NCBI GenBank assembly: GCA_964501265.1
Contig: CAZCSK010000008.1
Coordinates: forward strand, 387-64,386
Source: an uncultured Actinomycetes bacterium
Lineage (GTDB): Bacteria; Actinomycetota; CADDZG01; JAHWKV01
Reading direction: 5' to 3'
Length of the DNA: 64,000 nucleotides
In this document: piece by piece, positions 1,551 to 32,454 of the stretch
How positions within the stretch are numbered: the first letter of the stretch is position 1
Layout of the letters: each line of letters opens with the position of its first letter
The notes under the pieces: model-generated
Told to the model about the DNA's origin: nothing
Databases searched by the model: none
Seen by the model: the letters and a program-made list of their open reading frames with translations, nothing else
Translations under genes and position numbers: made by a program

Positions 1551-1576
1551 GATATCCGCAGTGATACGGTGAAACC

Positions 1577-2473: not shown

Positions 2474-2497
2474 GGCCGGACGGGAAGGAACTGTCGG

Positions 2498-3193: not shown

Positions 3194-3629
3194 ACTAGCG
3201 AGCTTCGCCAATATGGTCCCAATCTTGCTACTGGTAATTGGCTTTGGGCTCATCTTTGCCGGGTGGAACGGCGCGGCCGGCATTGATTACACACAGGGGC
3301 AAATTCCATTCCTCATCTCGGGTGGCATCACCGGGCTTGCGCTAGTCGTCTTCGGGGCCACTGGCTTGCTCTTAAGGTCGATCCGTCAGGGCCAGGACCG
3401 TCAGCTAGACGAATTGAAGCAAATGAGCCAATACATGCAACGTGCCGGCTCATCGACAGCCTCCTCAAACGGTTCCAACGGCCACTCCGATGGCGACCTC
3501 GTTCTGGTGGGGGCCAGCAGTTTTCACCAAGCCTCCTGTCGCTTGGTCAAAGGCCGCAGCCCAGTAAAGGTACCGCGAGGCCAAGCCGAGGAAGAAGGGC
3601 TTCAGCCCTGCAGGATCTGTAACCCCTAG
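3186..3629 (+). CDS. Hypothetical membrane protein with C-terminal Cys pairs (zinc-ribbon-like)
   Basis: Two predicted TM helices followed by a Ser-rich linker and CxxxxxC...CxxC at the C-terminus. Confidence 0.4.
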   Translation: MRRLASFANMVPILLLVIGFGLIFAGWNGAAGIDYTQGQIPFLISGGITGLALVVFGATGLLLRSIRQGQDRQLDELKQMSQYMQRAGSSTASSNGSNGHSDGDLVLVGASSFHQASCRLVKGRSPVKVPRGQAEEEGLQPCRICNP

Positions 3630-3633
3630 CGCG

Positions 3634-5261: not shown

Positions 5262-5263
5262 CG

Positions 5264-6325: not shown

Positions 6326-6326
6326 G

Positions 6327-7208: not shown

Positions 7209-7313
7209 GGATGGGAATCCTACCCGACCCCCCGAAGTACCCGGGTGCGCGACCCCGGCCTCCGGACCCGTTGCTCGGTAGGGGTCACGCCTTAAGCGTT
7301 TCAGCGTTATCGT

Positions 7314-8894: not shown

Positions 8895-8911
8895 GGATGA
8901 ATTCTCCTGCA

Positions 8912-10063: not shown

Positions 10064-10140
10064 ATTCCTCGGCTTGCTCTTGGCCAGAATCTTTTAATCA
10101 TCTTACCCTAGAAGGGTTCCCTAAACACCAGAAAGTGAGG

Positions 10141-11295
10141 TCACCACGGCCCCCGCATAATCATTCCGCTTCGAGGTTTGGGCCAAAACAGAGTCGTCTT
10201 GGGCGGCATCCTCATCCCCGATAGGGCGTTTTTGGTGACGAGGTCAAGGGCGGGAGGCGCTACGAGGAATCCGACCGAGTCCGAGCCCACCGCAGTGAGG
10301 ACGCGGGAGGCGTCGTGTTCGTAGGTTACGACCGCCCCAAGACTCTCCAGCAGATGCTCCAGATACGCGGTGTCGAGTTTGTCGGAGACCTTGACCTCAT
10401 AGACACCCTGAAGCGCGGCGACACCGATGGAGCCCGGGCCCTCCTGGGCGATCTTAGCCACCAGTTCTTCCGGCTGTATGGACAATGGAACAAGATCGAC
10501 GCTCTTCGAGAGGGCATCGAAGTTGATCTTTGACGCGATGCGATGAATGGGCCGCAGGGAGGGCGGATGCACGGACGGGTCCATGATCAACGCCAGTGTC
10601 GCGTCCCAGGGTCCAGGTCCGTCCACGCTTCGCCGTTCGTCCCGATAAGTGATTGCCGTTTCATAGCGATGGTGACCGTCGGCCACTATGACCGGAGTTT
10701 CGTTGATTCTCTCCACGACACTGGCCGCCTCGTCCCCGCTGACCCTAAAGGCGCGATGCCGAACATTCCCCGAATCGGCGACGTCCATTTCCGGAAGGCC
10801 GGCCATGACTTGCTCCGTGAACTCCTTGAATCTTTCTATGGGCCGGGAAGCGAGGAACCACAGCGGTTCCAAGTTCGCTGATGTTGCGCGCATTAACTGG
10901 AGTCGGTCCGCTTTGGGACCGGGCGTTGTCTGTTCATGCGGATAGACATCGCCGGCCCCCATCGTCTCGAGCTGCAACGCCCCAATAAGGCCGGCGGAGG
11001 TTTTGGAATCGTGATCCATTGTGTAAAGCCAGAAACTCGGGTCCTTCTCGTCGACGAGAGTCTCTTGTTGAATCCATTCCTTTAAGTAACCGGCCGCTCG
11101 GGAGTAACGGTCCCGCCCGGGCTTGTCGCTCGCCTGCACCGAACCCAAAATGATCCTGACGAAGTTGTTGGGGTGTGAGTCCTCCATAGCTTTCTGCTCG
11201 TCCGCAGAGATGACGTCGTAAGGCGGAGTGGTGACTAGATCGAGCGGAATAGATTCTGCGAAACGCAGAGCTCGAAAGGGTTTGAAGAGAGGCAC
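10141..11295 (-). CDS. DUF1015-family protein
   Basis: N-terminal FKPFRALRF...PPYDVIS and internal ADGHHRY motifs typical of DUF1015. Confidence 0.55.
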   Translation of the reverse strand: MPLFKPFRALRFAESIPLDLVTTPPYDVISADEQKAMEDSHPNNFVRIILGSVQASDKPGRDRYSRAAGYLKEWIQQETLVDEKDPSFWLYTMDHDSKTSAGLIGALQLETMGAGDVYPHEQTTPGPKADRLQLMRATSANLEPLWFLASRPIERFKEFTEQVMAGLPEMDVADSGNVRHRAFRVSGDEAASVVERINETPVIVADGHHRYETAITYRDERRSVDGPGPWDATLALIMDPSVHPPSLRPIHRIASKINFDALSKSVDLVPLSIQPEELVAKIAQEGPGSIGVAALQGVYEVKVSDKLDTAYLEHLLESLGAVVTYEHDASRVLTAVGSDSVGFLVAPPALDLVTKNALSGMRMPPKTTLFWPKPRSGMIMRGPW

Positions 11296-19685: not shown

Positions 19686-20081
19686 TTGGCTCGCCGCCGG
19701 GGTGCGCGCAAGCTCGCCCTGGATATTCTGTACGAACAGGATCTGACACAAGCAGCCGTCGGAGACATTCTCGATCGCTATGCTGCCAATCCAGCATACG
19801 AATTTGCCTCGCAACTGGTGAAAGGTGTTTGGGCTCACCGAGAGGAGTTGGATGGAATCATCTCCGAGAGCGCCCCCGACTGGAAACTCGAGAGGATGCC
19901 GGCGATAGACCGCAATCTCATGAGAATCGCGCTCTTTGAGATGCTCTACCTGGACGAGTCACCGACCGCCGTCGCAATTAACGAGGCCGTTGAACTTGCG
20001 AAGATGTATTCAACACAAGATTCAAGCCGCTTCGTAAACGGGGTGCTAGGTCGAGTCGCCGCCGGTCAACTACCGCGCTAA
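19686..20081 (+). CDS. nusB: Transcription antitermination factor NusB
   Basis: RRRGARKLALDILYE typical of NusB. efp-nusB synteny. Confidence 0.85.
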   Translation: MARRRGARKLALDILYEQDLTQAAVGDILDRYAANPAYEFASQLVKGVWAHREELDGIISESAPDWKLERMPAIDRNLMRIALFEMLYLDESPTAVAINEAVELAKMYSTQDSSRFVNGVLGRVAAGQLPR

Positions 20082-20244: not shown

Positions 20245-20454
20245 CTATTTGTTCCCTCGATCTAGGAGGTCTGCGGCCTTTCGCTTGCCATCGTCGACCA
20301 ATTCCTCAGCCTTGTCGCCTAGGTCATTCAATTTGCCTTTGACGCTGGCCCCCGCGCGGTCCAGTTTGCCTCTACGCTTGAGTTCCTCGTCGTCGGTAAG
20401 GTCGCCCACGGCTTCCTTCACCCTGCCCTTGGCTTCGTCGAATTTCTCGCCCAT
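20245..20454 (-). CDS. CsbD-family general stress protein
   Basis: CsbD fold signature KGKLNDLGDKAEE..., 69 aa. Candidate SigB-type promoter upstream. Confidence 0.75.
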   Translation of the reverse strand: MGEKFDEAKGRVKEAVGDLTDDEELKRRGKLDRAGASVKGKLNDLGDKAEELVDDGKRKAADLLDRGNK

Positions 20455-20495
20455 CTCAAAATCTCCTCTCGTTAATGACTCGCATTCAAAAGGGT

Positions 20496-20521
20496 ATTGC
20501 CCAGAAATGGGCTGCTATAAA
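20496..20521 (-). promoter_or_regulatory. Candidate SigB/SigF-type promoter (GTTTAT-N14-GGGCAA) for csbD-like gene
   Basis: Minus strand reads GTTTATagcagcccatttctGGGCAA, about 40 nt upstream of the ATG. The same architecture appears upstream of three other island genes. Confidence 0.4.
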
Positions 20522-20533
20522 CATGTAATAGGG

Positions 20534-20872
20534 TCAGTCCTTCTGGGTTGCGTCCTGAACCGAGGAATAGATGGAGAAGATCTTGTCGAGGCCGGTGACG
20601 TTAAGAATCTTTCGAACCGGCCCGTCCACACACACAAGCCGTAGATCCCCCTGGCTCTCATTCGTGCGTCTTTTTCCGGATATAAGGACAGAAAGACCGC
20701 TGGAGTCCATGAAATCCACTCCCAGAAGGTCCAGCACCAACTGGTTCCCGCCTTGTTCAATCAGCCGGATCAGTTCCGCCCGAAAGGTGGGAGAGGTGTA
20801 GATGTCGACTTCTCCCTTGACCTTCAAGACAGTCCAGTTGTCCAGGACTTCACTTTCCAAACCGATCTCCAT
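20534..20872 (-). CDS. STAS-domain anti-sigma-factor antagonist (RsbV/SpoIIAA-like)
   Basis: STAS motif LDLLGVDFMDSSGLSVL with the conserved phosphorylatable Ser. Confidence 0.8.
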   Translation of the reverse strand: MEIGLESEVLDNWTVLKVKGEVDIYTSPTFRAELIRLIEQGGNQLVLDLLGVDFMDSSGLSVLISGKRRTNESQGDLRLVCVDGPVRKILNVTGLDKIFSIYSSVQDATQKD

Positions 20873-20915
20873 CCAACCTCCATTAGTGTTCCGGCCATGT
20901 TACCGGAATGGCAAA

Positions 20916-23048
20916 TTAGTCAAACGTCACCTTAGCCACCAAAAGGACCAGGTCGTCAGCCAGTGAACCGTGAGAATAGTCTACGATCGACCGTTCCAGC
21001 CCCTCAACAATTGACTCCGCCCCGAGGCCGGCGAACTCGCCCAAGAGCGCGATGAGCCTGGCCTCTCCAAAGTTCTCCCCGTCGCGCCGCGCCTCGATCG
21101 CGCCGTCGGTGAAAAGGATGATCGCGTCTCCGTGACGGAGGTCCGCTGAATGTTCTCTTAGTTCGATATCCGGCACGGCTCCGAGCATTGTGCCCGGTTC
21201 CCCCAAAGTCTCGACTTGCCCGTTCGCCCGTAGAAGCAGCGGAGAGGGATGCCCAGCGCAGACCGTCGTGATGCGGGCTCCGAAGTCCGTTGGATCTATT
21301 TGTGCATAGGCCACGGTGCAGAACTGGTCCTCACCGCTTTGCTGCAACATGGCGTCGTTGAGCACAGTGAGAATCCGGCTGGGTTCGCGTTCTTGCATTG
21401 CCTCAGCGCGCACCGTGTACCTGATGAGCGGGGTCAAGGCAGCGGCTCTGGCCCCTCTGCCGGAGACATCTCCGATGACTATCGCCCAACGCTTCTGCCC
21501 ATACGAGAAAACGTCGTAGAAGTCACCACCTACATCGATTCCTTCGCCGGCGGCCGCGTAACGGACGGTGACTTCCATCCCTGGGATGCGTTCAACCAAC
21601 CTTGGCCGAAGGCTCTCCTGCAAGGTGGTTGCGATGTACCTCTGAGTTTCGTGAAGGCGGATGTTGTCCACTGCCAAGGCGGTACGGTCTGCAAACTCCT
21701 GGGCAAGGTCCAAGTCTTCCTTTTCGAACCTGGCCGATGATTCGTCCCGTCCCAGAGTGATCGTTCCCAAGATGCGCCCGCGCGCTCGCATGGGCACGAT
21801 GATCTGAGATGCAGATCCAAAGGCGAGGATCTCCTTGTGTTCGGAGTCGTAGAAAGTCATGCTGTCTACGAATTCCCCATGGAGGTCTAGGTTCTCGGCT
21901 TTCGACTTGTCCCTGTGAAGGATGATTGCCTTGGAGATCGACCCGCTCTCCTCCCGCATTTGGATCGCACACCAGTCGCCGAGGCTGCTCACAAGCAAGT
22001 CTCCAATCTTGCTGAGCATTGAGGCAACGTCCATCGACTTGGCAAGGATGACACCGGCTTCGGCTAAGAGCTGCATCCGGTCGTTGCGGGCCCTTAGTCG
22101 TGTCTCGGCCCGGCGCCTTTGAATGAACTGACCCATCTGAAGTGCGATCGAGTCCATCATTTCGAGCAGTGCATCGTCCCGGTCGACAACGTCACGATTA
22201 AAAAACTCGAGCACTCCAAGGACGTTGCCCGCCGACCGGACAGGTACGCCGAACGCCGCACGCAAGCCCACCTTGTCCGCGTAGAGGGCCCGGGGGAAAT
22301 TTTGATCTTGGCGTAGTTCCGGAATCCAGGCGTGCTCGCCTGTCTCCCAGACCCGGCCGGGCAGGCCGATCCCTCGGCGAAATTCGAAGCGTTGGGTGAC
22401 CGAGGCGAATTCATCCATTTCCTCAGACTCGCGCCAGACCTTGACGCAGCGGAGAAATTCACCCTCGTCATCAATGGTCCAGAGGGCTCCAAGAGCCCAA
22501 CCCAACTCGATGCAGACCGTACCTATGACCTCATTGGCAGCGTCGGACACCGGGCTGGACTTCGTAAGCGCTCTGCTAGCCGCGAACACCGCCCGCAATC
22601 GCAGCTGAGTGAGCCGCTCCTGAGTAATGTCCACCATCCAGCCGTTGATTCGGGCAGGAAAGCCCTTCCTTTTGAGCGTGACCTCGGAAGTGTCCCGGAC
22701 CCAAACTGTGCGCCCCCCGGCGCCGATCATGCGGTAGATGAGGTCGTTGGGCCGGCCATCGGTTATCGCCTCCGACCGCAAACGAATCATTTCTGCCCTG
22801 TCAGCCGGGTGCAGATGATTTTCCCAGAATTTTGAATCGGAGTACCAGTCTTGTAGTGGATACCCGAGCAGCTGTTCGCCTCCGGCGCTAACGAACTTAA
22901 ATCCGGAGAGGTTGCCGTCCGTTTCCCATATCACTGCCCCTGTGCGATCGAGGCGACCGACGGCAATCTGGCGCGCCCGATCCGCTTGCCGTCGAGCTTC
23001 GCGCTCGCGAGCGAACGCCGCAGACCTGCGCTTCAGGACTCCCGTCAA
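20916..23048 (-). CDS. PAS-GAF-GAF-PP2C (SpoIIE/RsbU-type) serine phosphatase
   Basis: C-terminal PP2C motifs GGDFYDV, GDVSGRG, FTDGAIEAR. N-terminal PAS and two GAF-like regions. Confidence 0.8.
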   Translation of the reverse strand: MTGVLKRRSAAFAREREARRQADRARQIAVGRLDRTGAVIWETDGNLSGFKFVSAGGEQLLGYPLQDWYSDSKFWENHLHPADRAEMIRLRSEAITDGRPNDLIYRMIGAGGRTVWVRDTSEVTLKRKGFPARINGWMVDITQERLTQLRLRAVFAASRALTKSSPVSDAANEVIGTVCIELGWALGALWTIDDEGEFLRCVKVWRESEEMDEFASVTQRFEFRRGIGLPGRVWETGEHAWIPELRQDQNFPRALYADKVGLRAAFGVPVRSAGNVLGVLEFFNRDVVDRDDALLEMMDSIALQMGQFIQRRRAETRLRARNDRMQLLAEAGVILAKSMDVASMLSKIGDLLVSSLGDWCAIQMREESGSISKAIILHRDKSKAENLDLHGEFVDSMTFYDSEHKEILAFGSASQIIVPMRARGRILGTITLGRDESSARFEKEDLDLAQEFADRTALAVDNIRLHETQRYIATTLQESLRPRLVERIPGMEVTVRYAAAGEGIDVGGDFYDVFSYGQKRWAIVIGDVSGRGARAAALTPLIRYTVRAEAMQEREPSRILTVLNDAMLQQSGEDQFCTVAYAQIDPTDFGARITTVCAGHPSPLLLRANGQVETLGEPGTMLGAVPDIELREHSADLRHGDAIILFTDGAIEARRDGENFGEARLIALLGEFAGLGAESIVEGLERSIVDYSHGSLADDLVLLVAKVTFD

Positions 23049-23115
23049 GCTGACTGCTCATTGGCAAAATGCACCGCCCAAGTCTAAATGACCCGGGCGG
23101 TGCTATCTCGGGGCT

Positions 23116-23352
23116 TTACTGAACGTGAGTGTGAGTTACTGGCGTTACTGGTTCTGTCGTCACTACCGTCTCACGGCGCCCAAATGGAGCCATGCTGCTC
23201 CAAAACAACAGCGACAAAAGCAACCCGAGTGAACCGACGATCATAAGGATTACGCCCATCACGTCTAGGTCAATCCCCTGAAAACTACCTGTCACCGCAA
23301 ATTTCAAAATGGCCCCGATGGCCATCAGAAAAATACCTACTCCAATACCCAT
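23116..23352 (-). CDS. Small two-TM membrane protein (stress-island member)
   Basis: Start at MGIGVGIF, preceded by AAGGAGAG. Two hydrophobic helices. SigB-type promoter upstream. Confidence 0.5.
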   Translation of the reverse strand: MGIGVGIFLMAIGAILKFAVTGSFQGIDLDVMGVILMIVGSLGLLLSLLFWSSMAPFGRRETVVTTEPVTPVTHTHVQ

Positions 23353-23407
23353 GATTCTCTCCTTGACCTTCGGCCTTAGCCCGATGGCTTGACCTCTCAA
23401 TAGTATT

Positions 23408-23432
23408 ATTCCCAGTCACCAGGATTCCAAAC
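23408..23432 (-). promoter_or_regulatory. Candidate SigB/SigF-type promoter (GTTTGG-N13-GGGAAT)
   Basis: Minus strand reads GTTTGGaatcctggtgactGGGAAT, immediately upstream of the small membrane protein gene. Confidence 0.4.
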
Positions 23433-23447
23433 ATTTTCGCTGATTCC

Positions 23448-23471
23448 GGCTGCTACCCCCCCGTACCCCCC
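23448..23471 (+). repeat. Palindromic repeat family, solo right-end fragment
   Basis: GGCTGCTACCCCCCCGTACCCCCCG. Confidence 0.6.
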
Positions 23472-23482
23472 GCTCTTCTTCA

Positions 23483-23549
23483 GGGGGTTCGCAGCTTCTG
23501 GCGCGCGCGGTTCCGTACGTAGGGGAGCTGCTACCCCCCCGAACCCCCC
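23483..23549 (+). repeat. Palindromic repeat family, full copy overlapping the 3' end (last 7 codons) of the sigma-factor gene
   Basis: GGGGGTTCGCAGCTTCTGGCGCGCGCGGTTCCGTACGTAGGGGAGCTGCTACCCCCCCGAACCCCCC. Confidence 0.85.
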
Positions 23550-24403
23550 TGTCTCAAGAGCGCTAGGCTCTTGGCCAGAAGGCGGGATACGTGCATTTGA
23601 GATATTCCGAGGTCGCGTGCGATCTCGGTTTGCGTCTTTCCCGCAACAAATCGCATATGGAGCACCTGTCGTTCCCTCCGGGGCAATTTTTCCAACAGGT
23701 TCTTTACGCTCGACCAGGCTTCGAAGAGTTCGATGGACTCGTCTGCGGAACCCATCCGCGATATGCGCGCTTCTAGGTCCTCGGCTGCAGGGGTATCCAG
23801 GGAAGCCAGGGAGTAGGCGCCGCTTGCTTCCATAGCATCCAGGATCTCCTCTTCCGAAGTGTTGAGTTGCTTTGCGATCTCAGGAATCGTGGGGGCCCGG
23901 CCAAGCTCTTGAGACATCCCCGGAACGGCCCTGGATATAGACAGTCCCATCTCCTGAAGGCGGCGGGGAACCCTAATTGCCCACCCGTGATCCCTGAAGT
24001 ACCGCTTGATCTCTCCAAGTACCGTCGGAGTCGCATATGTCGAGAACTCGATGCCCCTCGTAAGATCAAACCCTGCAATCGCCTTCAGGAGGCCAATGCT
24101 GCCGACTTGGATCAGGTCGTCGAGAGGTTCTCCTCTGCCCTGAAACTTTCTCGCCAGATACTCCACCAGCGGCATGTGGAGGCGAACCAGTTCGTCCCGG
24201 ACAGACGGCTTTTCATTTAACTGAGCGAAAAGTTGCCTCGTGAGCTCCTTGTCCGTCGCTGCAGATTCCCCCAATGCTAAACGCCGGAACTCTTGAACAT
24301 TCGAATCGCCGGGCTGCCGCCGTCGCTTTCGAACGAGACCTCGCCACTTAGAGCAGTCAGTATTTTCCAAGACAATTCCGACGCGATGCCCACAGGAGGC
24401 CAC
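23531..24403 (-). CDS. Group-3 sigma-70 family sigma factor (SigB/SigF-like); start uncertain; last 7 codons lie in a repeat copy
   Basis: Regions 2-4 present (LIQVGSIGLLKAIAGFD, YATPTVLGEIKRY, ERQVLHMRF..TQTEIARDLGISQMHVSRL). The ORF from ATG 24403 would overlap the upstream gene by 127 nt. Confidence 0.75.
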   Translation of the reverse strand: MASCGHRVGIVLENTDCSKWRGLVRKRRRQPGDSNVQEFRRLALGESAATDKELTRQLFAQLNEKPSVRDELVRLHMPLVEYLARKFQGRGEPLDDLIQVGSIGLLKAIAGFDLTRGIEFSTYATPTVLGEIKRYFRDHGWAIRVPRRLQEMGLSISRAVPGMSQELGRAPTIPEIAKQLNTSEEEILDAMEASGAYSLASLDTPAAEDLEARISRMGSADESIELFEAWSSVKNLLEKLPRRERQVLHMRFVAGKTQTEIARDLGISQMHVSRLLAKSLALLRQGGSGG

Positions 24404-24651
24404 GAGTCGGAGAGACCATCGACCGACAAACGCAACTCGAGAAAGCCTTCATTAGGGGAAATTTCTAACGTGAAGGTTCCGTCGTCACCGGCATGGTCAA
24501 GAAGGCATGCAGCAGCTTCATCTACAGCGAGCCGTATGTCGTCGATGGCGTCGATTGTGAAACCGGCCATTGCGCCCAGTCCCGCGGCATGAGTTCGCAG
24601 AAAATGGATGAAGGCCGGCTCTGCGGGCACTCGAAGAACGACGGCGCTCAT
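24277..24651 (-). CDS. RsbW-like anti-sigma-factor protein with degenerate HATPase motifs
   Basis: N-box-like IDDIRLAVDEAAACLL aligns to the RsbW N-box, but the catalytic E..N and G-boxes are substituted. Sits between the kinase and the sigma gene. Confidence 0.45.
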   Translation of the reverse strand: MSAVVLRVPAEPAFIHFLRTHAAGLGAMAGFTIDAIDDIRLAVDEAAACLLDHAGDDGTFTLEISPNEGFLELRLSVDGLSDSWPPVGIASELSWKILTALSGEVSFESDGGSPAIRMFKSSGV

Positions 24652-24758
24652 GCGGGTGGGCACGCGCCGGGTGGGTTTAGCATCAGACGTAGGATACGGG
24701 ACGTGAGCCAATCACGGCTTCGTCTGTCGGTTCCGATGGGCCCCTCTAGCGGGTGAAA

Positions 24759-25148
24759 TTAGGCCGCAAGGTCAATCTCAAACCAAACCGTCGTCTCGGA
24801 GTTGTTCGTGACACCCCAACGCGAAGAGAGCTGTTCAACAACCTCCAGGCCCCAGCCGCGCGTACCTGAATCTTCGGGGGTTCTTGTGGCGGGCGTGAAT
24901 CCGTTTCCGGAGTCGGTGACCTCGGCCCGAACAACGTCCTTTCGGATGATGATCTTCACCCCTACGGTCTCACCCGGAATTAGTCCGGCGTGCCGGATGC
25001 TGTTTGTCACGACCTCACTAATCAAGAGCTTCAGATCGTCGACCGCCTCCGCAAGAATATGATCCCTAAGCCCTTCGACCAAGCCACGAGCCACCCGCAC
25101 GGACTGCGGATCGGCGGGAAGCGAGGTTTCAATCACTTTGGTTGTCAT
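24759..25148 (-). CDS. Anti-sigma-factor serine kinase (RsbW/SpoIIAB-like, HATPase_c)
   Basis: N-box LLISEVVTNSIRHAG and G1 box DSGNGF. Confidence 0.75.
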   Translation of the reverse strand: MTTKVIETSLPADPQSVRVARGLVEGLRDHILAEAVDDLKLLISEVVTNSIRHAGLIPGETVGVKIIIRKDVVRAEVTDSGNGFTPATRTPEDSGTRGWGLEVVEQLSSRWGVTNNSETTVWFEIDLAA

Positions 25149-25245
25149 AATCTATGTTCTGCCCCTTTTTCTCCGGCTCCAATCAAACTGTGACTCAATC
25201 CACCGCGAAAACGCCCAGATCAGGCGTAAAACTCCAAAAAAAACT

Positions 25246-25707
25246 TCACGGTCGGCCCTCATCCTCGAACGCGCCGATCAAGACGCCATCGGCAGCTGTC
25301 ACGATTGCAGTCTGGAAATCGTGCTTCCGCATTCGGGTACGCATGTCCTCGATCGAGACATCTGGTCGATAGGTGCTAGGCCCATCTGTCATCACATCTT
25401 CTGCTAAGGCCTCTGGAGGAGTTTCGGCCAGCGCCTCATCGCGCAGAGCACCCAGAACGACCCCATCCTCACTCACAACAAGTGCCATATCCCATCCAGC
25501 ATCGAAGGCTCGGTTTCTAACTTCGTCGACACTGTCCCCGAGTCTGCATGTTGGCACTTGGCGAACATGCCGTCCGATCCTCGGCGTTGCGGAGTCACTC
25601 CCAATGGTGGGGAGACCATGGGCCATCCAACCGGCCTTGCCAGGCACGAAGTCGTAAACGCGCTCGAACCCGAGAGTTTCAAGCCGGCACGCGGCTCGTG
25701 GACTCAA
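25246..25707 (-). CDS. Distal part of rhodanese-CBS gene: rhodanese C-terminal half plus CBS pair, following an in-frame TGA
   Basis: CRLETLGFERVYDFVPGKAGW is the end of a rhodanese fold. Two CBS motifs follow. Same frame as the upstream fragment. Confidence 0.55.
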   Translation of the reverse strand: MSPRAACRLETLGFERVYDFVPGKAGWMAHGLPTIGSDSATPRIGRHVRQVPTCRLGDSVDEVRNRAFDAGWDMALVVSEDGVVLGALRDEALAETPPEALAEDVMTDGPSTYRPDVSIEDMRTRMRKHDFQTAIVTAADGVLIGAFEDEGRP

Positions 25708-25710
25708 ATC

Positions 25711-25914
25711 TCACTGGTAGTCGAAGCAGTAGACAATCACCGGGCGCGCCTTGTCGAGAGCCTGGGCCCTCCTTGCGCTCAGATCCTTCAACGGGAGATT
25801 GACCGCGCCGGGAATGTGTTCGGCGTCAAACTCTTCCTCGCCGAGGACCTCAACGAGCAGGGCCCCCTCCTTCACGAGCCTCTGGACTTCGATGTAGTCA
25901 ATATTCGTAACCAA
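25711..25914 (-). CDS. Proximal part of rhodanese-CBS gene: rhodanese N-terminal half ending at an in-frame TGA after the active-site Cys region
   Basis: EHIPGAVNLPL...PVIVYCFDYQ then TGA. Reading resumes in the same frame 2 codons later. Confidence 0.55.
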   Translation of the reverse strand: MVTNIDYIEVQRLVKEGALLVEVLGEEEFDAEHIPGAVNLPLKDLSARRAQALDKARPVIVYCFDYQ

Positions 25915-26202
25915 TCGGACCTCCCTGGAAGCGGTCTTCCCTGAAGACTAGGCGCGGCCCCGTGTTCGCGGAAACCTGACGTTCCAATGTACGTAGCATG
26001 TGTCCCGTTGGTTGTAGACAGAAAGAGGTGTCTCGCACCCGGGAAATGAGCATTCTCGATTGACGTGGCTTGAAGGAACGAGGGGGCGCGCCGGGTTGGG
26101 TCGAGTTCCTTTCAATGTTGTCGATCTATGCATATCGCGGGTCCTCTTGAAGGATTGAGATTGTTCTACCCATTTTCGTGGAGGAAATAACGCGTGCTGC
26201 AT

Positions 26203-26228
26203 GTTTAGAGATATCGAGCCGCGGGTAA
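26203..26228 (+). promoter_or_regulatory. Candidate SigB/SigF-type promoter (GTTTAG-N14-GGGTAA)
   Basis: GTTTAGagatatcgagccgcGGGTAA, about 38 nt upstream of the ATG at 26266. Lies in an unusually AT-rich intergenic stretch. Confidence 0.45.
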
Positions 26229-26265
26229 GACAAGTTGGAGTCACCAACCGAGAAGGAGGAAAGCT

Positions 26266-26475
26266 ATGTGTGTATCGTGCGGATGTAGTACACCCGATGA
26301 CGACCACGGCGATGAAAAGCACATCGTCATGGATGAAGTAAAAAAGACCGGCGGTGCAGATCAGATTACGGAAGACCGCCTGCAGAAGGCCGCGGAAGCC
26401 GCTGGCATCACCACCGAACAAGCCAAGCAAAACGTGCGTGAGGGCCGTGAAACCGTGTCCTCACCCAACGCCTAA
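26266..26475 (+). CDS. Small acidic protein with N-terminal Cys cluster (MCVSCGCS...)
   Basis: Strong RBS GAAGGAGGAAAGCT before the ATG. 69 aa. No known family. Confidence 0.55.
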   Translation: MCVSCGCSTPDDDHGDEKHIVMDEVKKTGGADQITEDRLQKAAEAAGITTEQAKQNVREGRETVSSPNA

Positions 26476-26489
26476 AGGAGGAGAAGTAA

Positions 26490-26780
26490 ATGTCACACAT
26501 TCACGAGCCTGGTAACACGACCACAGTCGTCGAAGACTCATCCTCGTCGGCTCTGTTGATAGTAGTTGCGGTAATAGTGGGAATTGTGTTGATATGGGCC
26601 ATCTTTTTTAGCGGTTGGGTCATCGACCGCAGCCCCGACAGCGGCGTCACGAACATAGACAACACGACGGAGGGTGACACCAACGTTAACAATCCCCCCC
26701 AGCCCACTCAGCCAACTCAAACTGAACCGGCTCCAACTCAGCCGGCTCCAACTCAGCCAGCTCCGACGACGGCGCCTTAG
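26490..26780 (+). CDS. Single-pass membrane protein with Pro/Thr/Gln-rich tandem repeat tail
   Basis: Strong RBS AAAGGAGGAGAAG. TM helix LLIVVAVIVGIVLIWAIFF. The tail is PTQPTQTEPAPTQPAPTQPAPT, encoded by short tandem DNA repeats. Confidence 0.55.
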   Translation: MSHIHEPGNTTTVVEDSSSSALLIVVAVIVGIVLIWAIFFSGWVIDRSPDSGVTNIDNTTEGDTNVNNPPQPTQPTQTEPAPTQPAPTQPAPTTAP

Positions 26781-26911
26781 CGGGCGTTGCCGTCCAGAGA
26801 CAAACGCCGCCTGAGGCAGATGACTCGGGCGGCGTTTGGCCGTCCGTAACTACTTTGGCCTTCCCCCGATTTGACGGACATCCGAGATACGGGGCACCGA
26901 GATCAGCCGAT

Positions 26912-26937
26912 GTTTGGCACCGGCCGATTCTGGGCAT
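26912..26937 (+). promoter_or_regulatory. Candidate SigB/SigF-type promoter (GTTTGG-N14-GGGCAT)
   Basis: GTTTGGcaccggccgattctGGGCAT, about 38 nt upstream of the second csbD-like gene. Confidence 0.4.
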
Positions 26938-26975
26938 GAATCCATTGGAATCAATCGAACAGAATGGACATCTAG

Positions 26976-27185
26976 ATGGGCGAGAGAATCGACGAAGTCG
27001 CGGGCAGGGCCAAGGAGGCTCTAGGCGATTTGACCGATGACAAGGAACTGCAGCGCGAGGGCAAGCTCGACCGTGCAGGCGCAGACCTTAAGCGGACAAT
27101 CAACGGCATCGGCGACAAAGCTGAGGATGGAGTCGACGCAGCCAAGAGGAAAGTTGAAGACGTTCTAGAACCTCAGAGGAACTAA
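26976..27185 (+). CDS. CsbD-family general stress protein (second copy)
   Basis: 69 aa. About 60% identical to the 20245..20454 product. KELQREGKLDRAGADLKRTINGIGDKAEDG. Confidence 0.75.
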   Translation: MGERIDEVAGRAKEALGDLTDDKELQREGKLDRAGADLKRTINGIGDKAEDGVDAAKRKVEDVLEPQRN

Positions 27186-27198
27186 CACGTAGGATTCG

Positions 27199-27230
27199 AA
27201 AGCCCGCCCTTGAAGGGCGGGCTTTCTCGT
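27199..27230 (+). terminator. Rho-independent terminator
   Basis: GCCCGCCC-TTGAA-GGGCGGGC perfect 8-bp GC stem followed by TTTCTCGT. Confidence 0.75.
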
Positions 27231-27264: not shown

Positions 27265-28845
27265 TTGAGGAACAAATGGCGGTGGGTGGGCGTCCCCATA
27301 CTCTTGCTGCTCATGCTCTTTGCAGCCGCAGCGACCTTCTTACAAGCGGACCTGCTGGCAGCCCCGGACGTCCTATTGATCCTGGGCACATGGGTCGCGA
27401 TCGCCACGGTGATCGCTGTCGCCAAGATCGACAAGCGGTTCGTTCGGTCCCATCAACCAACTACCTGGATCGGCAGGCGTTTCGGGCGGGGACCGCGCGG
27501 CATCGCACTGACGGCGTCCATCCTGCTGACGATCGTATGTGCAATAGCGGTCTACTTGCTCGGACAGCGAGTCAGTGTTGTCACCTCAGAGATTTCGCGC
27601 TTTGACCTTCGCATCGTCGACCTCGCCCATGCCCAAGAAACCATCAACCAACGTCCGGTGATGTCTGCCCTTACCGAGATCGGCCGGGGGCGGATAACGA
27701 CGATCATGCTGGTCCTCGTAGCACTAGGTGCAATGGTCGCGGGTGCAAGACGCGCGGTGTTGTTGATGGTGGCAATTCCGGCGCTTTCGAGTATCGCAGT
27801 GACGACGCTCAAAGCATTTCACTCACGGCCGCGCCCGGCATTTGGGAGTTTGCTCGAGGCTTCTCACAGCTTTCCCAGTGGGCACAGCGCCGGAGGGCTC
27901 GCACTCGCCGCGGGAGTTTTGGTGATGGCCCGCCGGTGTGGCTTCAAACGGACGTGGTTGGCGAGCGGCATCCTGCTTCCACTTGGGCTGTCCATCGGTT
28001 ACAGCCGTGCATATCTAAGTGTTCACTGGACATCTGATGTTGTGGGAGGCTGGCTAGTGGCAGCGGCCATAACCGGGCTAGTGCTAGCGCTGTCATTGGC
28101 TCTTCCTCGTACGGCGGAAAAGTGGGAAGTCAAGCACGGATGGATCGACGCCGGTCTTGGGGCGGCCATTGTCGTGGCATTAATAGTTGGATTTGACGGC
28201 GCGCGTAACTCTTTCCCTGACTTTCCTGCAACTATTCCGGAAAAAGTCGCCGAGCTCGCGGCCGTGCTGAAGAAGCTTCCACCGACCTCCGAGACGCTTC
28301 TGGGCCGCCAGGTAGAACCGGTCAACCTGCTCCTCACCAGCGCCGAAGGGGACCTTCAGGGCACTCTGCGCGACTTGGGCTACACCCGAGCGCTCCATCT
28401 GACGCCTCTGCGCATCATTAATCCTGACCGCTCAGAAGACCTGAAGGAGCTCTCCGTATCCCGCGCTTTCCTGGATACGCGGGTCCAGGATTTCGCGATG
28501 CAAATGCCGTCGCAAAAAGGCCTCTCGCGGCATTACGCCAGATTTTGGAGGCTGCCAGTCTCGCTCCAAAACGGCTGCGACGTTTGGGCAATCAATGCAA
28601 CGTTGCGCGACAGTTCCGGTCGATTGGAGTGGCAATTAATCCCGGAATCTCACATCCGACCTAAAGTGGACGAAGAACGTGAATTTCTTACCATGAAGTT
28701 GGTTGACTCGGGACTATTTCGTTTTTCCGAGCTTCGACGTGTCCGCAACACTCAAAGCGATCGCTCTGCTGGCGGTGATCTTTTCGTTACCGACGGGAAG
28801 ATAGCACTACTCGAAACCCTCGCACCCTGCGAGACCAAGCGGTAG
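27265..28845 (+). CDS. Polytopic PAP2 phosphatase with ~250 aa C-terminal extracytoplasmic domain (LssY_C-like)
   Basis: PAP2 motifs KAFHSRPRP, PSGHS, SRAYLSVHWTSD inside an 8-TM region. Large soluble C-terminal domain. Confidence 0.65.
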   Translation: MRNKWRWVGVPILLLLMLFAAAATFLQADLLAAPDVLLILGTWVAIATVIAVAKIDKRFVRSHQPTTWIGRRFGRGPRGIALTASILLTIVCAIAVYLLGQRVSVVTSEISRFDLRIVDLAHAQETINQRPVMSALTEIGRGRITTIMLVLVALGAMVAGARRAVLLMVAIPALSSIAVTTLKAFHSRPRPAFGSLLEASHSFPSGHSAGGLALAAGVLVMARRCGFKRTWLASGILLPLGLSIGYSRAYLSVHWTSDVVGGWLVAAAITGLVLALSLALPRTAEKWEVKHGWIDAGLGAAIVVALIVGFDGARNSFPDFPATIPEKVAELAAVLKKLPPTSETLLGRQVEPVNLLLTSAEGDLQGTLRDLGYTRALHLTPLRIINPDRSEDLKELSVSRAFLDTRVQDFAMQMPSQKGLSRHYARFWRLPVSLQNGCDVWAINATLRDSSGRLEWQLIPESHIRPKVDEEREFLTMKLVDSGLFRFSELRRVRNTQSDRSAGGDLFVTDGKIALLETLAPCETKR

Positions 28846-28856
28846 CCTTAGAGGCC

Positions 28857-30332
28857 ATGCGCGAACGCAAGCGAAGACATCTTCCGAAACCGGTCCAACG
28901 TTGGGATCTTGCGATGTTTCGGCGACTATCGGGGGTCGAGTCCTCGATTCTCGACAAGACTCTTATGCCCCTAACGCATGCCGCCAATGACTCGCGACTA
29001 TGGATTGTCTTGGCGGCACTAATTGCGACATTTGGAGGAAGATTTGGCCGGCGAGCCGCTCTTCGAGGACTCATGTCACTTGCAATCACATCGGGGATCG
29101 TGAATTTGCCGGCAAAGTATCTTGCACATAGGCATCGGCCGGACGACGAGCGTCGAAGGCGGCGCCGACTGGCCATTCTTCCCGCATCTTCGTCATTCCC
29201 GTCGGGGCACTCCGCCTCCGCCGCCGCCTTTGCCACCGGTGTCGCTTTAGAGTTACCTACTCTCGCGGTGCCGGTGGGAGTGCTGGCAACCGCGACTGGG
29301 TTCTCGCGGGTCTACGCCGGCGTGCATTACCCGCTCGACGTCTTGGTTGGCGCGGCATTGGGAGTGACCGCCGCACTGACAACACGGCGGTGGTGGCCGG
29401 TGGCCCCGCGCGAGACCGCCCAGATGCGACCTACTGTCATGGCAGCAAAAACAAACCCACTCGTCGATGGCAACGGTCTCGTGATCTTTGTAAATCCTTC
29501 TGCCGGCCCAGCATTGTCACGAAACGGAACGTCCCAAATCAAGGACTTGCTTCCCAATGCAGAAGTGATCGAACTGGATGATGACGCTGACCTGGAGGAA
29601 CAGTTGACACATGCAGCCCAGCGATGCCATGCCTTGGGAGTTTGCGGCGGCGACGGTTCCATCAATTGTGGAGCGGAAGTGGCCTTGAAACACGACAAGC
29701 CATACGTGGCTATGCCAGGAGGCACTTTGAACCACCTGGCGCGCGATCTTGGGATCGCGTCTCTCGAAGACGCTGCGACGGCGGTTATCGAGGGCCAGAC
29801 CGCTGCGATGGATGTCGGCCTCATCGATGGCAAACCTTTCCTCAACACAGCAAGTGCTGGCGCTTATGTCGAACTGGTCGACGCCCGCGAGCGGCTGGAA
29901 AGCAGGATCGGCAAGTGGCCGGCGGTCATCGTTGCTCTGGTGACCGTTTTGAGTAAAGGCACACCGCTGCGCGTAGAAATCGATGGAGTGCCCAAGGTAA
30001 TCTGGATGATCTTCATCGGTAACTGCCGTTATCACCCACAGGGATTTGCACCGAGTTGGCGCGAGCGACTCGATGACGGAGATTTAGACCTGCGGATCGT
30101 GAACGGGTCGGAGCCATGGTCTAGGACCCGCTTGGTGCTGGCCGTTATGACTGGGCGGCTGGGACGCAGCCGAGTCTACGAGGCCAGGATCGCGAAACGA
30201 ATCGAGATAAGGTCAATGGAGGGTCCGCTGCGGTTGGCACGCGACGGTGAAACGTTCGATGGTTCAGACTCGTTCCTCATTGAAAAACACAAGGAACGTT
30301 TGACCGTCTATGTCCCGGGCGAGGGGACCTAG
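28857..30332 (+). CDS. Fusion protein: membrane PAP2 phosphatase + DAGK-type lipid kinase catalytic domain
   Basis: PAP2 motifs (RHRPDD, PSGHSA, SRVYAGVHYPLD), then DAGK_cat motifs (LVIFVNPSAG, GGDGSIN, PGGTLNHLARDLG). Confidence 0.7.
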   Translation: MRERKRRHLPKPVQRWDLAMFRRLSGVESSILDKTLMPLTHAANDSRLWIVLAALIATFGGRFGRRAALRGLMSLAITSGIVNLPAKYLAHRHRPDDERRRRRRLAILPASSSFPSGHSASAAAFATGVALELPTLAVPVGVLATATGFSRVYAGVHYPLDVLVGAALGVTAALTTRRWWPVAPRETAQMRPTVMAAKTNPLVDGNGLVIFVNPSAGPALSRNGTSQIKDLLPNAEVIELDDDADLEEQLTHAAQRCHALGVCGGDGSINCGAEVALKHDKPYVAMPGGTLNHLARDLGIASLEDAATAVIEGQTAAMDVGLIDGKPFLNTASAGAYVELVDARERLESRIGKWPAVIVALVTVLSKGTPLRVEIDGVPKVIWMIFIGNCRYHPQGFAPSWRERLDDGDLDLRIVNGSEPWSRTRLVLAVMTGRLGRSRVYEARIAKRIEIRSMEGPLRLARDGETFDGSDSFLIEKHKERLTVYVPGEGT

Positions 30333-30976
30333 GACTCCCGGTTCAGATACCTGCCGATGAGAAACAGCAAGCCGAACAGAACGACTACACCAACTCCGGT
30401 TATTAGCCAGGTCGTTTTGGGATCGTCCTTATTGAAAAACCCACCCAACAAGTAGCCGACCGACATCACTTCAGCGATACCCACCAGAGCGCCGATTGCA
30501 TCAGGCGGTAGAAACTGCTTCGCCTTGACTTTGGACGAGCCCGCTGCAGCCCCCACTAGCGCTGAAGGGAAGGCAGCGAGCCGACCCCAGAATACGACCC
30601 TCGAGCCTTTCTTCTTGAGCACTTTTTGCAATTTCGCTATCTTTTTCAGCGGTAAGATTCTGCCCACGATGCCAGGTAACTTCTCGCTCTTGATCTCTGT
30701 TGCATAAAGTCGGCCGAGGTAATAGAAATGCCAGACTCCCAGTATCGACAACGGGATCGCGGCCAGCACTATCTGAAGTAAAAGAGCCGAAGATTGGGTA
30801 GCCCGTGCTTTGTAGGCTCCTGCTAACAGGACTTCTTTCGTGGGCCGCATCACAACCAGCAGCAAGAAGTGGTCGGAATACAGAAACTTCGCCAGCGGAA
30901 TAGCGGCAATGCCCAGGAGGATGCGGAAACCCGCGAGCCAAAGTAAAAACGTTCGAAGGCGCGTGGACTTTTTCAC
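30329..30976 (-). CDS. DedA/VTT-family membrane protein
   Basis: Multi-TM protein with the DedA-like VVFWGRLAAFPSALVGAAAG motif. Start uncertain. Confidence 0.5.
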   Translation of the reverse strand: MKKSTRLRTFLLWLAGFRILLGIAAIPLAKFLYSDHFLLLVVMRPTKEVLLAGAYKARATQSSALLLQIVLAAIPLSILGVWHFYYLGRLYATEIKSEKLPGIVGRILPLKKIAKLQKVLKKKGSRVVFWGRLAAFPSALVGAAAGSSKVKAKQFLPPDAIGALVGIAEVMSVGYLLGGFFNKDDPKTTWLITGVGVVVLFGLLFLIGRYLNRES

Positions 30977-30996
30977 AAGTTAGCATTCTCCTTAAG

Positions 30997-31692
30997 GTGA
31001 AAAAGAGCAACCCTACAATGCTATGGGCATATTCGATCGGGGCGGGCATCGCGGTTCTGTCAGGTGTCGGCGTCGCTGTGGGATTCTTACTCAAGCGGTC
31101 GTCCTGGGGCATAGACGCATCGATAGTTCGCTCTCTGCATGAGAGATTGAGTTGCGACAACCCCTTCATCGTCGCCGCGAAGTTCATCGTGTACCTGGGC
31201 TTGCCTCCTTGGTTCTACCTGCTCATTGGGGGTACTTGTATTTACCTGGCTATCCGCAAACGCTGGGGTGAAATCGCCTACCTGTTGATCTCTTCTGTAG
31301 GGGGCGGACTTATCGACACAATCGTTAAGCGTGTCGTCGATCGTCCTCGTCCGAACGTGGGACGGCCCTGCAACTTCCAAACATTCAGTGGTGAAGGATG
31401 GAGCTTCCCATCGGGTCATTCAATGACGTCCGTGATCGTGTACGGGGCTCTGATGGTGATCTTTCTCCCACGACTAGCCCCACGCTGGCGCATCCCGGGA
31501 ATCATTCTTGCAGTCCTACTCCCACTTGCGATCGGGTTTTCCCGGCTTTCTCTAGGGGTTCACTGGGTGAGCGACATCATCGGAGGATGGCTATTGGGGG
31601 TAGCTTGGCTTGCAGTTTCGACATTCAGTTTCAAAAGGTGGGGAGAAACGCACCCTTTCGAAACAACGGCATCACCAACCCCTGGAGACTGA
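30997..31692 (+). CDS. PAP2-family lipid phosphatase (UppP/PgpB-like)
   Basis: KRVVDRPRP, PSGHS, SRLSLGVHWVSD in a 6-TM protein. Confidence 0.75.
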   Translation: MKKSNPTMLWAYSIGAGIAVLSGVGVAVGFLLKRSSWGIDASIVRSLHERLSCDNPFIVAAKFIVYLGLPPWFYLLIGGTCIYLAIRKRWGEIAYLLISSVGGGLIDTIVKRVVDRPRPNVGRPCNFQTFSGEGWSFPSGHSMTSVIVYGALMVIFLPRLAPRWRIPGIILAVLLPLAIGFSRLSLGVHWVSDIIGGWLLGVAWLAVSTFSFKRWGETHPFETTASPTPGD

Positions 31693-31812: not shown

Positions 31813-31883
31813 GGTCCTGAGAGGCCGGAAAGGGAGCCACATGAACACGCGCAACGCCGGATGCTCGGGCTCCGGCGTTTTTT
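31813..31883 (+). promoter_or_regulatory. PyrR-binding attenuator in pyr operon leader (binding loop + intrinsic terminator)
   Basis: GGTCCTGAGAGGCCGGAAAGGGAGCC matches the PyrR box (UCCnGAGAGGCu...). It is followed by an ACGCCGGA/TCCGGCGT hairpin and TTTTTT. Confidence 0.7.
31854..31883 (+). terminator. Attenuator terminator hairpin of pyr leader
   Basis: 8-bp GC-rich stem, 9-nt loop, and a run of 6 T. Confidence 0.7.
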
Positions 31884-31902
31884 CATTCGGGACCAATCTT
31901 TG

Positions 31903-32454
31903 ATGGGCTCCCCTCGACCGGTCGGCAACTCCAAGGTGGTGCTCGAGGTCGATGACATTACCAGGGCGATAAGGCGCATGGCCCATGAGATCATCGAGCG
32001 CAACAAGGGCTCGTTAGATCTTGCCCTCGTTGGGATTCGCAAACGTGGCGTTCCCCTCGCTCACCGCCTAGCAGCCGAAATTGAAGGCATAGAGGGTTCG
32101 ACGGTTCCTACAGGGGACCTCGACGTATCGTTCTACCGCGACGATGTCGGCATCCGCAGGCCGCAGGAAATTTTCAGCACCAACGTAAAGTTCGATCTCA
32201 ACAACATGACCGTCGTCCTGGTTGATGATGTTCTCTACACGGGCAGGACGGTGAGGGCGGCCATCGATGCCGTCGTCGACTTCGGCCGACCTCGCTATAT
32301 TCAATTGGCAGTCCTTGTAGATAGGGGCCACCGCGAGCTTCCGATCCGGGCGGACTTCATCGGAAAGAACCTTCCTACCGCGCCCGGCCAGGAAGTGAAT
32401 GTCCACCTTCAAGAGACCGACGGGGAGGATGCGGTGATAGTGGTTACGCCATGA
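31903..32454 (+). CDS. pyrR: Bifunctional pyrimidine operon regulator / uracil phosphoribosyltransferase PyrR
   Basis: PRTase motif VVLVDDVLYTGRT and PyrR family similarity. Start placed after the attenuator terminator. Confidence 0.85.
   Translation: MGSPRPVGNSKVVLEVDDITRAIRRMAHEIIERNKGSLDLALVGIRKRGVPLAHRLAAEIEGIEGSTVPTGDLDVSFYRDDVGIRRPQEIFSTNVKFDLNNMTVVLVDDVLYTGRTVRAAIDAVVDFGRPRYIQLAVLVDRGHRELPIRADFIGKNLPTAPGQEVNVHLQETDGEDAVIVVTP

Follow-up and report, generated by a model that had tools for sequence, protein, structure and literature searches.

A putative SigF partner-switching system of the mycobacterial type in a single gene block of an uncultured actinomycete

Gene content and borders of the locus

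A 64-kb stretch of DNA from an uncultured Actinomycetes bacterium (contig CAZCSK010000008.1; the whole stretch is called the window below) carries, between nusB and pyrR, a block of genes that we consider likely, from homology and gene order, to encode a mycobacterial-type SigF partner-switching system packed into a single locus. Genes were called from the listing of open reading frames (ORFs) and from Pfam and NCBIfam family scans. To the left of the block, aroB, aroQ, pepP, efp and nusB (19686-20081) lie on the plus strand. A minus-strand run follows, with genes for a DUF5670 protein, CsbD1, a STAS protein, a PAS-GAF-GAF-PP2C phosphatase, a DUF6458 protein, a sigma factor, a degenerate RsbW-like protein, an intact RsbW-like kinase, a rhodanese-CBS protein and a CCCH protein, and at the right side stand three plus-strand genes, for a Cys/His-rich protein of 69 residues, a PTQ-repeat membrane protein and CsbD2 (Table 1).

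An initial annotation of this DNA had described the block as a stress island bordered by nusB and pyrR, and every gene that it named is present. Its list is otherwise complete, except that it passed over the CCCH gene and the DUF5670 gene; the latter is co-oriented with csbD1, and the block starts with it at 20088, one gene before the left border of 20245 first given. The right border also had to be redrawn: pyrR lies at 31861-32454, 4.6 kb past the end assigned to the block, the gap between nusB and pyrR amounts to 11.8 kb, and the series pyrR-pyrB-pyrC-carAB runs from 31861 onward. The four genes between the block and pyrR (27265-31692) encode a row of three PAP2-family membrane proteins and a 215-residue membrane protein, in the order PAP2-LssY_C fusion, PAP2-diacylglycerol-kinase-domain fusion, 215-residue protein and third PAP2 protein.

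Table 1. Features of the block, in map order. Positions are those of the window; nt, nucleotides.
Feature	Position	Strand	Basis or remark
DUF5670/lmo0937-like membrane protein, 51 residues	20088-20243	-	Pfam DUF5670, E = 1.7e-4; last gene of the csbD1 unit
csbD-like gene 1 (csbD1)	20245-20454	-	Pfam CsbD, 43.9 bits (cutoff 40)
Putative promoter GTTTAT-N14-GGGCAA	20497-20522	-	42 nt between the end of its -10 element and the csbD1 ATG; also at the orthologous places in L002 and L028
STAS anti-sigma-factor antagonist (RsbV/RsfB-like)	20534-20872	-	Pfam STAS, 88 bits; TIGR00377, 96 bits (cutoff 53)
PAS-GAF-GAF-PP2C (SpoIIE-type) sensor phosphatase	20916-23048	-	Pfam PAS_3, two GAF, SpoIIE
Terminator-like hairpin after the DUF6458 gene	23066-23109	-	14-bp perfect stem, then AUUUUG
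DUF6458 small membrane protein	23116-23352	-	Pfam DUF6458, 42 bits; true start at ATG 23352
Putative promoter GTTTGG-N13-GGGAAT	23408-23432	-	Pattern match upstream of the DUF6458 gene
Group-3 sigma factor, SigB/SigF/SigG family, 247 residues	23531-24274	-	TIGR02980; TTG start at 24274
Putative kinase-less anti-sigma factor, UsfX/RsbW1 type	24277-24651 (ORF to 24711)	-	Profile match and BLASTP to M. tuberculosis RsbW
RsbW/SpoIIAB-type serine kinase, N, G1 and G2 boxes intact	24759-25148	-	Pfam HATPase_c_2, 56 bits; HATPase_c, 42 bits
Rhodanese-CBS protein, very probable selenoprotein	25246-25914	-	In-frame TGA 25711-25713 at a conserved Cys; one frame by family scans and homologue alignment
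SECIS-like hairpin	25680-25698	-	7-bp stem with loop CGUGC; +15 to +33, counted from the U of UGA
CCCH protein (C-x4-C-x12-C-x2-H), 61 residues	25948-26133	-	First gene of the regulatory string; conserved
Putative promoter GTTTAG-N14-GGGTAA	26203-26228	+	Upstream of the Cys-rich gene; orthologous GTTTAG-N14-GGGTAT in L002 and L003
Cys/His-rich protein, 69 residues (MCVSCGCSTPDDDHGDEKH...)	26266-26475	+	ORF; L002 orthologue 76% identical
Single-pass membrane protein with PTQ-repeat tail	26490-26780	+	ORF 14 nt past the Cys-rich gene; orthologue in L002
Terminator-like hairpin after the PTQ gene	26801-26838	+	Inverted repeat; fold z = -4.0
Putative promoter GTTTGG-N14-GGGCAT	26912-26937	+	Upstream of csbD2; alignment of csbD promoters
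csbD-like gene 2 (csbD2)	26976-27185	+	Pfam CsbD, 42.6 bits (above cutoff)
Terminator hairpin after csbD2	27198-27226	+	13-bp stem, then UUUCUCG; z = -5.4

The junction of nusB and pyrR is probably conserved otherwise in Actinobacteria, and the block had been taken for an island inserted into it. A mobile island was rejected on several grounds. The GC content is flat (52-62%), a tRNA scan found no tRNA within the window, no integrase-like ORF is among the genes annotated there, and element-like flanking or terminal repeats are lacking, the sole long repeat being the inverted pair formed by csbD1 and csbD2. Moreover, the same whole cassette is found on a 15-kb metagenome contig from a different lineage (L002; 65% identity for the degenerate RsbW-like protein), where it also lies upstream of pyrR and where the other flank is MlrC/methylmalonyl-CoA mutase, not nusB. 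The cassette is a conserved unit in a variable region, and nothing marks it as mobile. Between cassette and pyrR, L002 has a single FAD monooxygenase gene in place of the PAP2 genes.

Regulatory proteins and SigF-type promoters

The sigma factor has Pfam regions 2, 3 and 4 and lacks region 1.1, and it belongs to the SigBFG family by its score against TIGR02980 (273.4 bits, cutoff 234.35). On the strength of these profiles it is classed as a SigB/F-family, SigF-like sigma factor and not as a proven SigF orthologue. It also matches the PDB chains 8x6g_H and 1l0o_C. The overlap of 127 nt with the RsbW-like gene upstream, to which the initial annotation had drawn attention, stems from the choice of the longest ORF: alignment with the homologues of L002 and a second relative, L006, puts the start at the TTG codon at 24274, 2 nt past the stop of the RsbW-like gene. 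Near the other end of the sigma gene, two copies of a 28-nt G-rich element (minus-strand sense AGAGCGGGGGGTACGGGGGGGTAGCAGC) stand 78 nt apart (23449-23476 and 23527-23554); one copy spans the last codons and the stop, the other lies in the 3' untranslated region, and the fold is not significant (z = -0.4).

The gene immediately upstream of the sigma gene encodes an RsbW-like protein with degenerate catalytic boxes, and probably starts at the ATG at 24651. The N-box Asn is replaced by Cys, and neither a G1 nor a G2 box is present (DxGxG is missing where G1 would be). Its close relatives in the protein database are few, 13 in number and all from metagenomes or Actinomycetota metagenome-assembled genomes (MAGs), and a profile built from 13 members of the family matches the M. 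tuberculosis 'Anti-sigma-F factor RsbW', or UsfX (PDB 8ih8_C/8jzt_B, E = 4e-16). By BLASTP the window protein is 33% identical to UsfX over the full length (E = 9e-15), compared with 29% over 48 residues only for the neighbouring kinase. On these figures it is not a recent paralogue of that kinase, and a decayed recent duplicate of the kinase was rejected for the same reason and because the family is conserved, with an invariant DDxRLAxDE motif of its own. The N-box pattern E...N..H is found in none of 58 members of the anti-sigma family, which have Val, Cys, Arg, Leu or other residues at the Asn, versus all 13 orthologues of the intact kinase.

Scanning one genome per species recovered 55 loci with this anti-sigma gene, from Nanopelagicales, Acidimicrobiia/Ilumatobacteraceae, Actinomycetospora, Marmoricola, one Coriobacteriia MAG and many other MAGs. 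In 52 of the 55, the next gene downstream encodes a SigB/F-type sigma factor, the exceptions being two contig ends and one locus (L039) where the two genes are not adjacent. The junction is mostly a 4-nt GTGA/ATGA overlap in the relatives and a 2-nt gap after TAG in the window, and the two genes are likely to be translationally coupled. The match to UsfX, the adjacency to a sigma gene and the family-wide absence of the catalytic Asn lend good support to the earlier suggestion of a pseudo-kinase anti-sigma factor, and the degenerate protein is best explained, judging from its sequence relatives, as a kinase-less anti-sigma factor that would bind both the sigma factor and the unphosphorylated STAS protein. 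A number of Nanopelagicales loci (L020, L022-L025, L029, L032-L036) have the anti-sigma/sigma pair without a STAS, kinase or PP2C gene within 10 kb.

The kinase has all three boxes (SEVVTNSIRHA, DSGNG and GTRGWG), of which N and G1 could be aligned to RsbW (6m36_A) and SpoIIAB. The STAS protein carries the phospho-serine motif DSSG (FMDSSGL, aligned with YMDSTGL of RsbV) and matches RsbV (6m36_B, E = 3.6e-11) and RsfB (8ih8_A, E = 6.7e-9) in the PDB. In the phosphatase, the PP2C domain is complete (PF07228, E = 1.1e-43, profile positions 2-191 of 192), and among solved structures it comes closest to Rv1364c of M. tuberculosis (3ke6, E = 7.7e-14). Orthologues of the kinase and the STAS protein are encoded in one gene run in two relatives, L010 and L018, divergently from the anti-sigma/sigma pair, an arrangement that recalls the rsfB-rsbW2 operon of M. 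smegmatis. We propose that the intact RsbW is the counterpart of the M. smegmatis RsfB kinase and would phosphorylate the STAS protein.

Some relatives have additional copies of these components. L002 carries an extra call for a 130-residue HATPase_c_2 (RsbW-like) protein (3985-4377 of that contig, minus strand), on the opposite strand between the kinase and anti-sigma genes, which has no counterpart in the window. In four more distant relatives (L007, L021, L010 and L018, at about 1500-10400) there are two genes for STAS proteins: the first is divergent from the anti-sigma/sigma pair, and the second accompanies the kinase gene and that of a very large PP2C protein. Some of the four also carry a second, weak UsfX-like gene, which in L010 and L018 lies between the STAS and kinase genes; this suggests multi-tier versions comparable to M. 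smegmatis with its RsbW3.

A division of labour of the kind proposed here is documented in M. smegmatis. There RsbW1 (MSMEG_1803, the UsfX orthologue), whose gene shares a transcript with sigF, binds SigF but lacks kinase activity (Oh et al. 2020, PMC7693655), and RsbW2 (MSMEG_6129), which has kept the N, G1 and G2 boxes, is the sole kinase of RsfB (at Ser-63) and does not bind SigF (PMC7693655). The PP2C protein MSMEG_6131 dephosphorylated RsfB-P in what its authors give as preliminary, unshown data (PMC7693655). The degenerate RsbW of the window, first described as unusual, thus represents the known state of actinobacterial SigF systems, in which a UsfX-type anti-sigma factor coexists with a separate kinase, and is no oddity.

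The two proteins might instead be wired as in Bacillus, with the intact RsbW acting both as anti-sigma factor and as kinase and the degenerate one as a decoy or antagonist of the real anti-sigma factor. Such a scheme has precedents, since one RsbW does both jobs in B. subtilis and since in M. smegmatis RsbW3, a kinase-less homologue of RsbW, works as an antagonist of anti-SigF (PMC7693655), and the second weak gene between STAS and kinase in L010 and L018 could be read in the same way. However, it is the degenerate protein, not the kinase, that adjoins the sigma gene in 52 of 55 loci, and the Nanopelagicales loci keep this pair with neither kinase nor STAS gene within 10 kb. The best solved match of the degenerate protein (8ih8_C/8jzt_B) is moreover the anti-SigF factor itself, and the kinase homologue of M. 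smegmatis does not bind SigF (PMC7693655). We regard a Bacillus-like wiring as quite improbable and retain the kinase-less protein as the candidate anti-sigma factor.

The four promoter motifs of the initial annotation lie exactly where it had placed them; all are intergenic, sense-oriented and 38-55 nt before a start codon. Written as GTTT-N15/16-GGG(T/A/C)A, the sites have the same spacing and -10 variants as the promoters of M. smegmatis SigF, whose experimentally supported targets include GGGTA, GGGAA and GGGCA (PMC4694148); a SigF consensus has also been given as GGWWT-N16-17-GGGTAY (PMC7693655). Their assignment to the SigB/SigF type, as target promoters beside the regulators, is borne out by conservation at orthologous positions in relatives. 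In L002 the strict pattern gives 3 matches against 0.39 expected, each ahead of an orthologue: the Cys-rich, the DUF6458 and the csbD gene. At 49-57 nt before the DUF6458 gene, a GTTTnn-N14-GGGAAT site persists in L002, L006 and L018 as in the window although the spacers are unrelated, and the csbD promoter is also kept in L028, GTTT and GGGnA being invariant in the alignment of csbD promoters. No further intergenic site was found with a relaxed pattern between nusB and pyrR, and a scan with the sigma-70 consensus was uninformative.

That these motifs are chance matches, and the block merely a collection of stress-type genes, had to be weighed because the pattern is short and degenerate: GTTTNN-N13/14-GGGNAW has 6 matches in the window against 1.82 expected, and 2 of 100 shuffled windows also gave 6. 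Their placement, nonetheless, is hard to ascribe to chance. The four matches in the block all stand in the promoter positions described above, and the two outside it are antisense inside carA and fmt; from the density of the pattern in the window we estimate about 0.01 chance placements in such positions for the roughly 14 block genes. The sites also recur at orthologous positions in four other lineages, where only the -35 and -10 elements are invariant. Chance is, on these data, an extremely improbable explanation.

Another alternative is that the promoters are real and serve a second SigB/F-like sigma factor, whose gene lies elsewhere in the genome, the local one having another specificity. 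Sets of several SigB/F-type paralogues are common in actinobacteria (M. smegmatis has a total of 28 sigma genes), our view spans 64 kb of the genome, and the local sigma gene has no such promoter of its own. On the other hand, the promoters flank the sigma gene and co-vary with it in relatives, the two travelling together in L002, L006 and L018, and the motif is the SigF consensus while the best specific models of the sigma factor are SigBFG and SigF. We consider such a second sigma factor unlikely, and the local one the probable reader of these promoters.

The name csbD stands for 'controlled by sigma B'. The two csbD genes form a 196-nt inverted repeat (70% identity, 20261-20456 versus 26974-27169) that brackets the regulatory block; L002 has the csbD1-side copy only, and the absence of csbD2 there marks csbD2 as a lineage-specific duplication. 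The CsbD-DUF5670 pair also occurs in L002, and the DUF5670 protein reaches 22 bits, below cutoff, with NCBIfam lmo0937_fam_TM. Orthologues of the DUF6458 protein are encoded in L002, L006 and L018, and the Cys/His-rich protein has no family match in the Pfam and NCBIfam scans. Three of the four local units (csbD1-DUF5670, DUF6458, Cys-rich-PTQ and csbD2) end in strong terminator hairpins, which lie after the DUF6458, PTQ and csbD2 genes and indicate that the promoters head short units. The DUF6458 hairpin has a folding energy of -38.2 kcal/mol (z = -4.5), and none of 200 shuffled sequences folds as well.

The rhodanese-CBS gene and other accessory features

The rhodanese-CBS gene was correctly named in the initial annotation, with the qualification that its frame is interrupted by an in-frame TGA. 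The corresponding alignment column holds Cys in all 23 full-length homologues (41-51% identity), where it is the second Cys of YCxDxxC in the motif YC[WYF]DxxC-D[LM]SPRAA, and all invariant residues downstream of the TGA are kept in the window protein. A metagenome search with a degenerate DNA pattern that required TGA at this codon returned at least 120 homologues, against fewer than 0.1 estimated chance matches. All 120 matches listed are in-frame rhodanese genes that run on for about 150-170 codons where the contig allows.

Downstream of the TGA lies a hairpin resembling a selenocysteine insertion sequence (SECIS). Across the 114 unique sequences obtained from these matches, the loop is CGUG(G/C), and synonymous sites are nearly frozen, with C at +20 in 112 and G at +23 in all 114. 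The Arg codon is always CGG, save for CAG (Gln) in two sequences, and in these two the replacement of Arg by Gln at +28 goes with a synonymous change at +20, a C-G pair thereby giving way to a compensatory U-A pair. The same sites vary in four Cys-containing homologues. Folding of the single sequence alone chose another hairpin, which was not significant. Taken together, the frozen synonymous sites, the compensatory change and the variation in the Cys homologues form the signature of a bacterial SECIS. The rhodanese-CBS gene very probably encodes a selenoprotein in which the TGA is read as selenocysteine (Sec); a pseudogene or a sequencing error was rejected in its favour on account of the TGA, the continued coding and the conserved hairpin that the metagenome homologues share.

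Rhodanese-like selenoproteins are known in five forms, and form 1 has the signature 'UxxS' (2026 review, PMC13188914). The window protein is likened to form 1 by motif only, with its probable Sec in the active-site loop and a U-D-L-S sequence that fits 'UxxS'; it differs from the listed Sec-rhodaneses in its fusion to a CBS pair and in an additional upstream Cys (YCxDxxU). It reaches none of the NCBIfam selenoprotein models (20 bits for NF041203, cutoff 115; 32 bits for TsoB, cutoff 805).

The CCCH protein has an orthologue at the same place in L002 (3162-3341, plus strand; 70% identity) and the invariant pattern R-x-C-x4-C...YN-x4-C-x2-H...RG. Its family comprises over 1000 'hypothetical' Actinomycetota proteins of about 67 residues, which no Pfam or NCBIfam model matches and whose genes mostly have mgtE on one side and a Zincin_2-tilS-hpt-ftsH string on the other, in the order mgtE | CCCH-x-Zincin_2-tilS-hpt-ftsH; because of this setting it was rejected as a core part of the switch and is counted as accessory. 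The rhodanese-CBS gene was likewise set aside as accessory, since only a remnant of 45 codons is left of it in L002 and since partner-switching genes do not accompany it in 119 other loci.

The string to which these two genes belong also includes those of the kinase, the anti-sigma factor and the sigma factor, and all of them may share a transcript. One could picture the CCCH and rhodanese-CBS proteins as an upstream redox, persulfide or selenium-dependent input on the kinase or on the Cys-bearing anti-sigma factor, which would make the system a selenoprotein-gated SigF switch, an idea that we hold to be very unlikely.

Two further features lie elsewhere in the window. The Rfam scan gave no match in the block, its sole match being an FMN riboswitch (RF00050, 110 bits) at 60564-60689 on the plus strand. 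Near its C-terminal part, a 536-residue ORF (55856-57466, plus strand) repeats a stretch of about 25 residues in tandem (first copy GGVAASSARGSVRKGAATPPNPP).

Proposed switch and relation to known SigF and SigB systems

Taken together, these data support the core of the initial annotation, a SigB/SigF-type partner-switching module with target promoters beside its regulators, and they lead us to propose the following mechanism. To call the module self-contained goes beyond what 64 kb of a genome can support. The sigma factor would be held inactive by the kinase-less anti-sigma factor until unphosphorylated STAS protein binds the latter and so releases the sigma factor. The kinase would keep the system off by phosphorylating the DSSG serine of the STAS protein, and the PAS-GAF-GAF-PP2C phosphatase would strip this phosphate upon a signal at its sensor domains. 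With RNA polymerase, the free sigma factor would then act on the GTTT-N15/16-GGG(T/A/C)A promoters of csbD1-DUF5670, DUF6458, Cys-rich-PTQ and csbD2, and presumably also transcribe genes elsewhere. The CCCH and seleno-rhodanese-CBS genes, upstream of the kinase gene in the same string, would be lineage-specific passengers or accessory inputs.

Several points weigh against this interpretation. Every mechanistic step is derived from homology and synteny. The sigma factor scores 252.6 bits against the SigF model NF005514, below the cutoff of 372, and so falls short of SigF orthology at the equivalog level, unlike mycobacterial SigF. Several SigB/F-like sigma factors are common in actinobacteria, and another paralogue could read the promoters. 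As csbD1 and csbD2 are duplicates, and their promoter spacers partly alike, the four promoters do not amount to four independent observations. A SigF-type promoter ahead of the regulatory genes or of PP2C-STAS was sought even with the relaxed pattern and none was found, unlike the situation at usfX-sigF of M. tuberculosis, where such a promoter precedes the anti-sigma/sigma pair. Finally, about 17 nt separate the end of the DUF6458 hairpin from the start of the PP2C gene, and transcription of PP2C-STAS may need polymerases that read through this hairpin, in which case there would be positive feedback, or may begin at a promoter not recognised here.

Among known systems, the mycobacterial SigF system is closely similar. 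The kinase-less anti-sigma gene lies immediately upstream of the sigma gene (the two are co-transcribed in mycobacteria), and a separate RsbW-type kinase with intact boxes, a phosphorylatable STAS protein, a PP2C phosphatase and GTTT-N15/16-GGG(T/A/C)A promoters are shared. In mycobacteria, however, three or more separate loci encode the parts, among which RsfA and RsbW3 are additional antagonists, whereas here a single STAS gene is found and one 7-kb block also holds four target units. The phosphatase input differs as well, being PAS-GAF-GAF here and a receiver domain in the mycobacterial PP2C. Rv1364c of M. tuberculosis (PAS-PP2C-kinase-STAS, linked to SigF), the closest solved relative of the PP2C domain, likewise has a sensor domain before PP2C, but it fuses kinase and STAS to the phosphatase, whereas these are separate genes here and two GAF domains are added. 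With the SigB module of B. subtilis (RsbU/RsbP-RsbV-RsbW-SigB) the block shares the logic of partner switching, the STAS protein, a PP2C with PAS input (as in RsbP), targets of the CsbD family and promoters of the GTTT...GGGWA class; a single RsbW combines the roles of anti-sigma factor and kinase in Bacillus, whereas here the two functions would fall to two proteins.

The block is thus a compact further example of a mycobacterial-type SigF system, real but ordinary. The large family of very probably Sec-containing rhodanese-CBS proteins in soil Actinomycetota, abundant in metagenomes, may be of wider interest than the switch itself. As for the switch, the occurrence of the anti-sigma/sigma pair across Actinomycetota, many lineages of soil MAGs included, indicates that the combination of a UsfX-type anti-sigma factor with a separate kinase is not an oddity of mycobacteria. 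The version described here is unusually compact and fully linked, with regulators and four putative direct targets within 7 kb that could be moved as one piece to a heterologous host, and its defined sigma-dependent promoters would offer a handle on CsbD, DUF6458, DUF5670 and the Cys/His-rich peptide.

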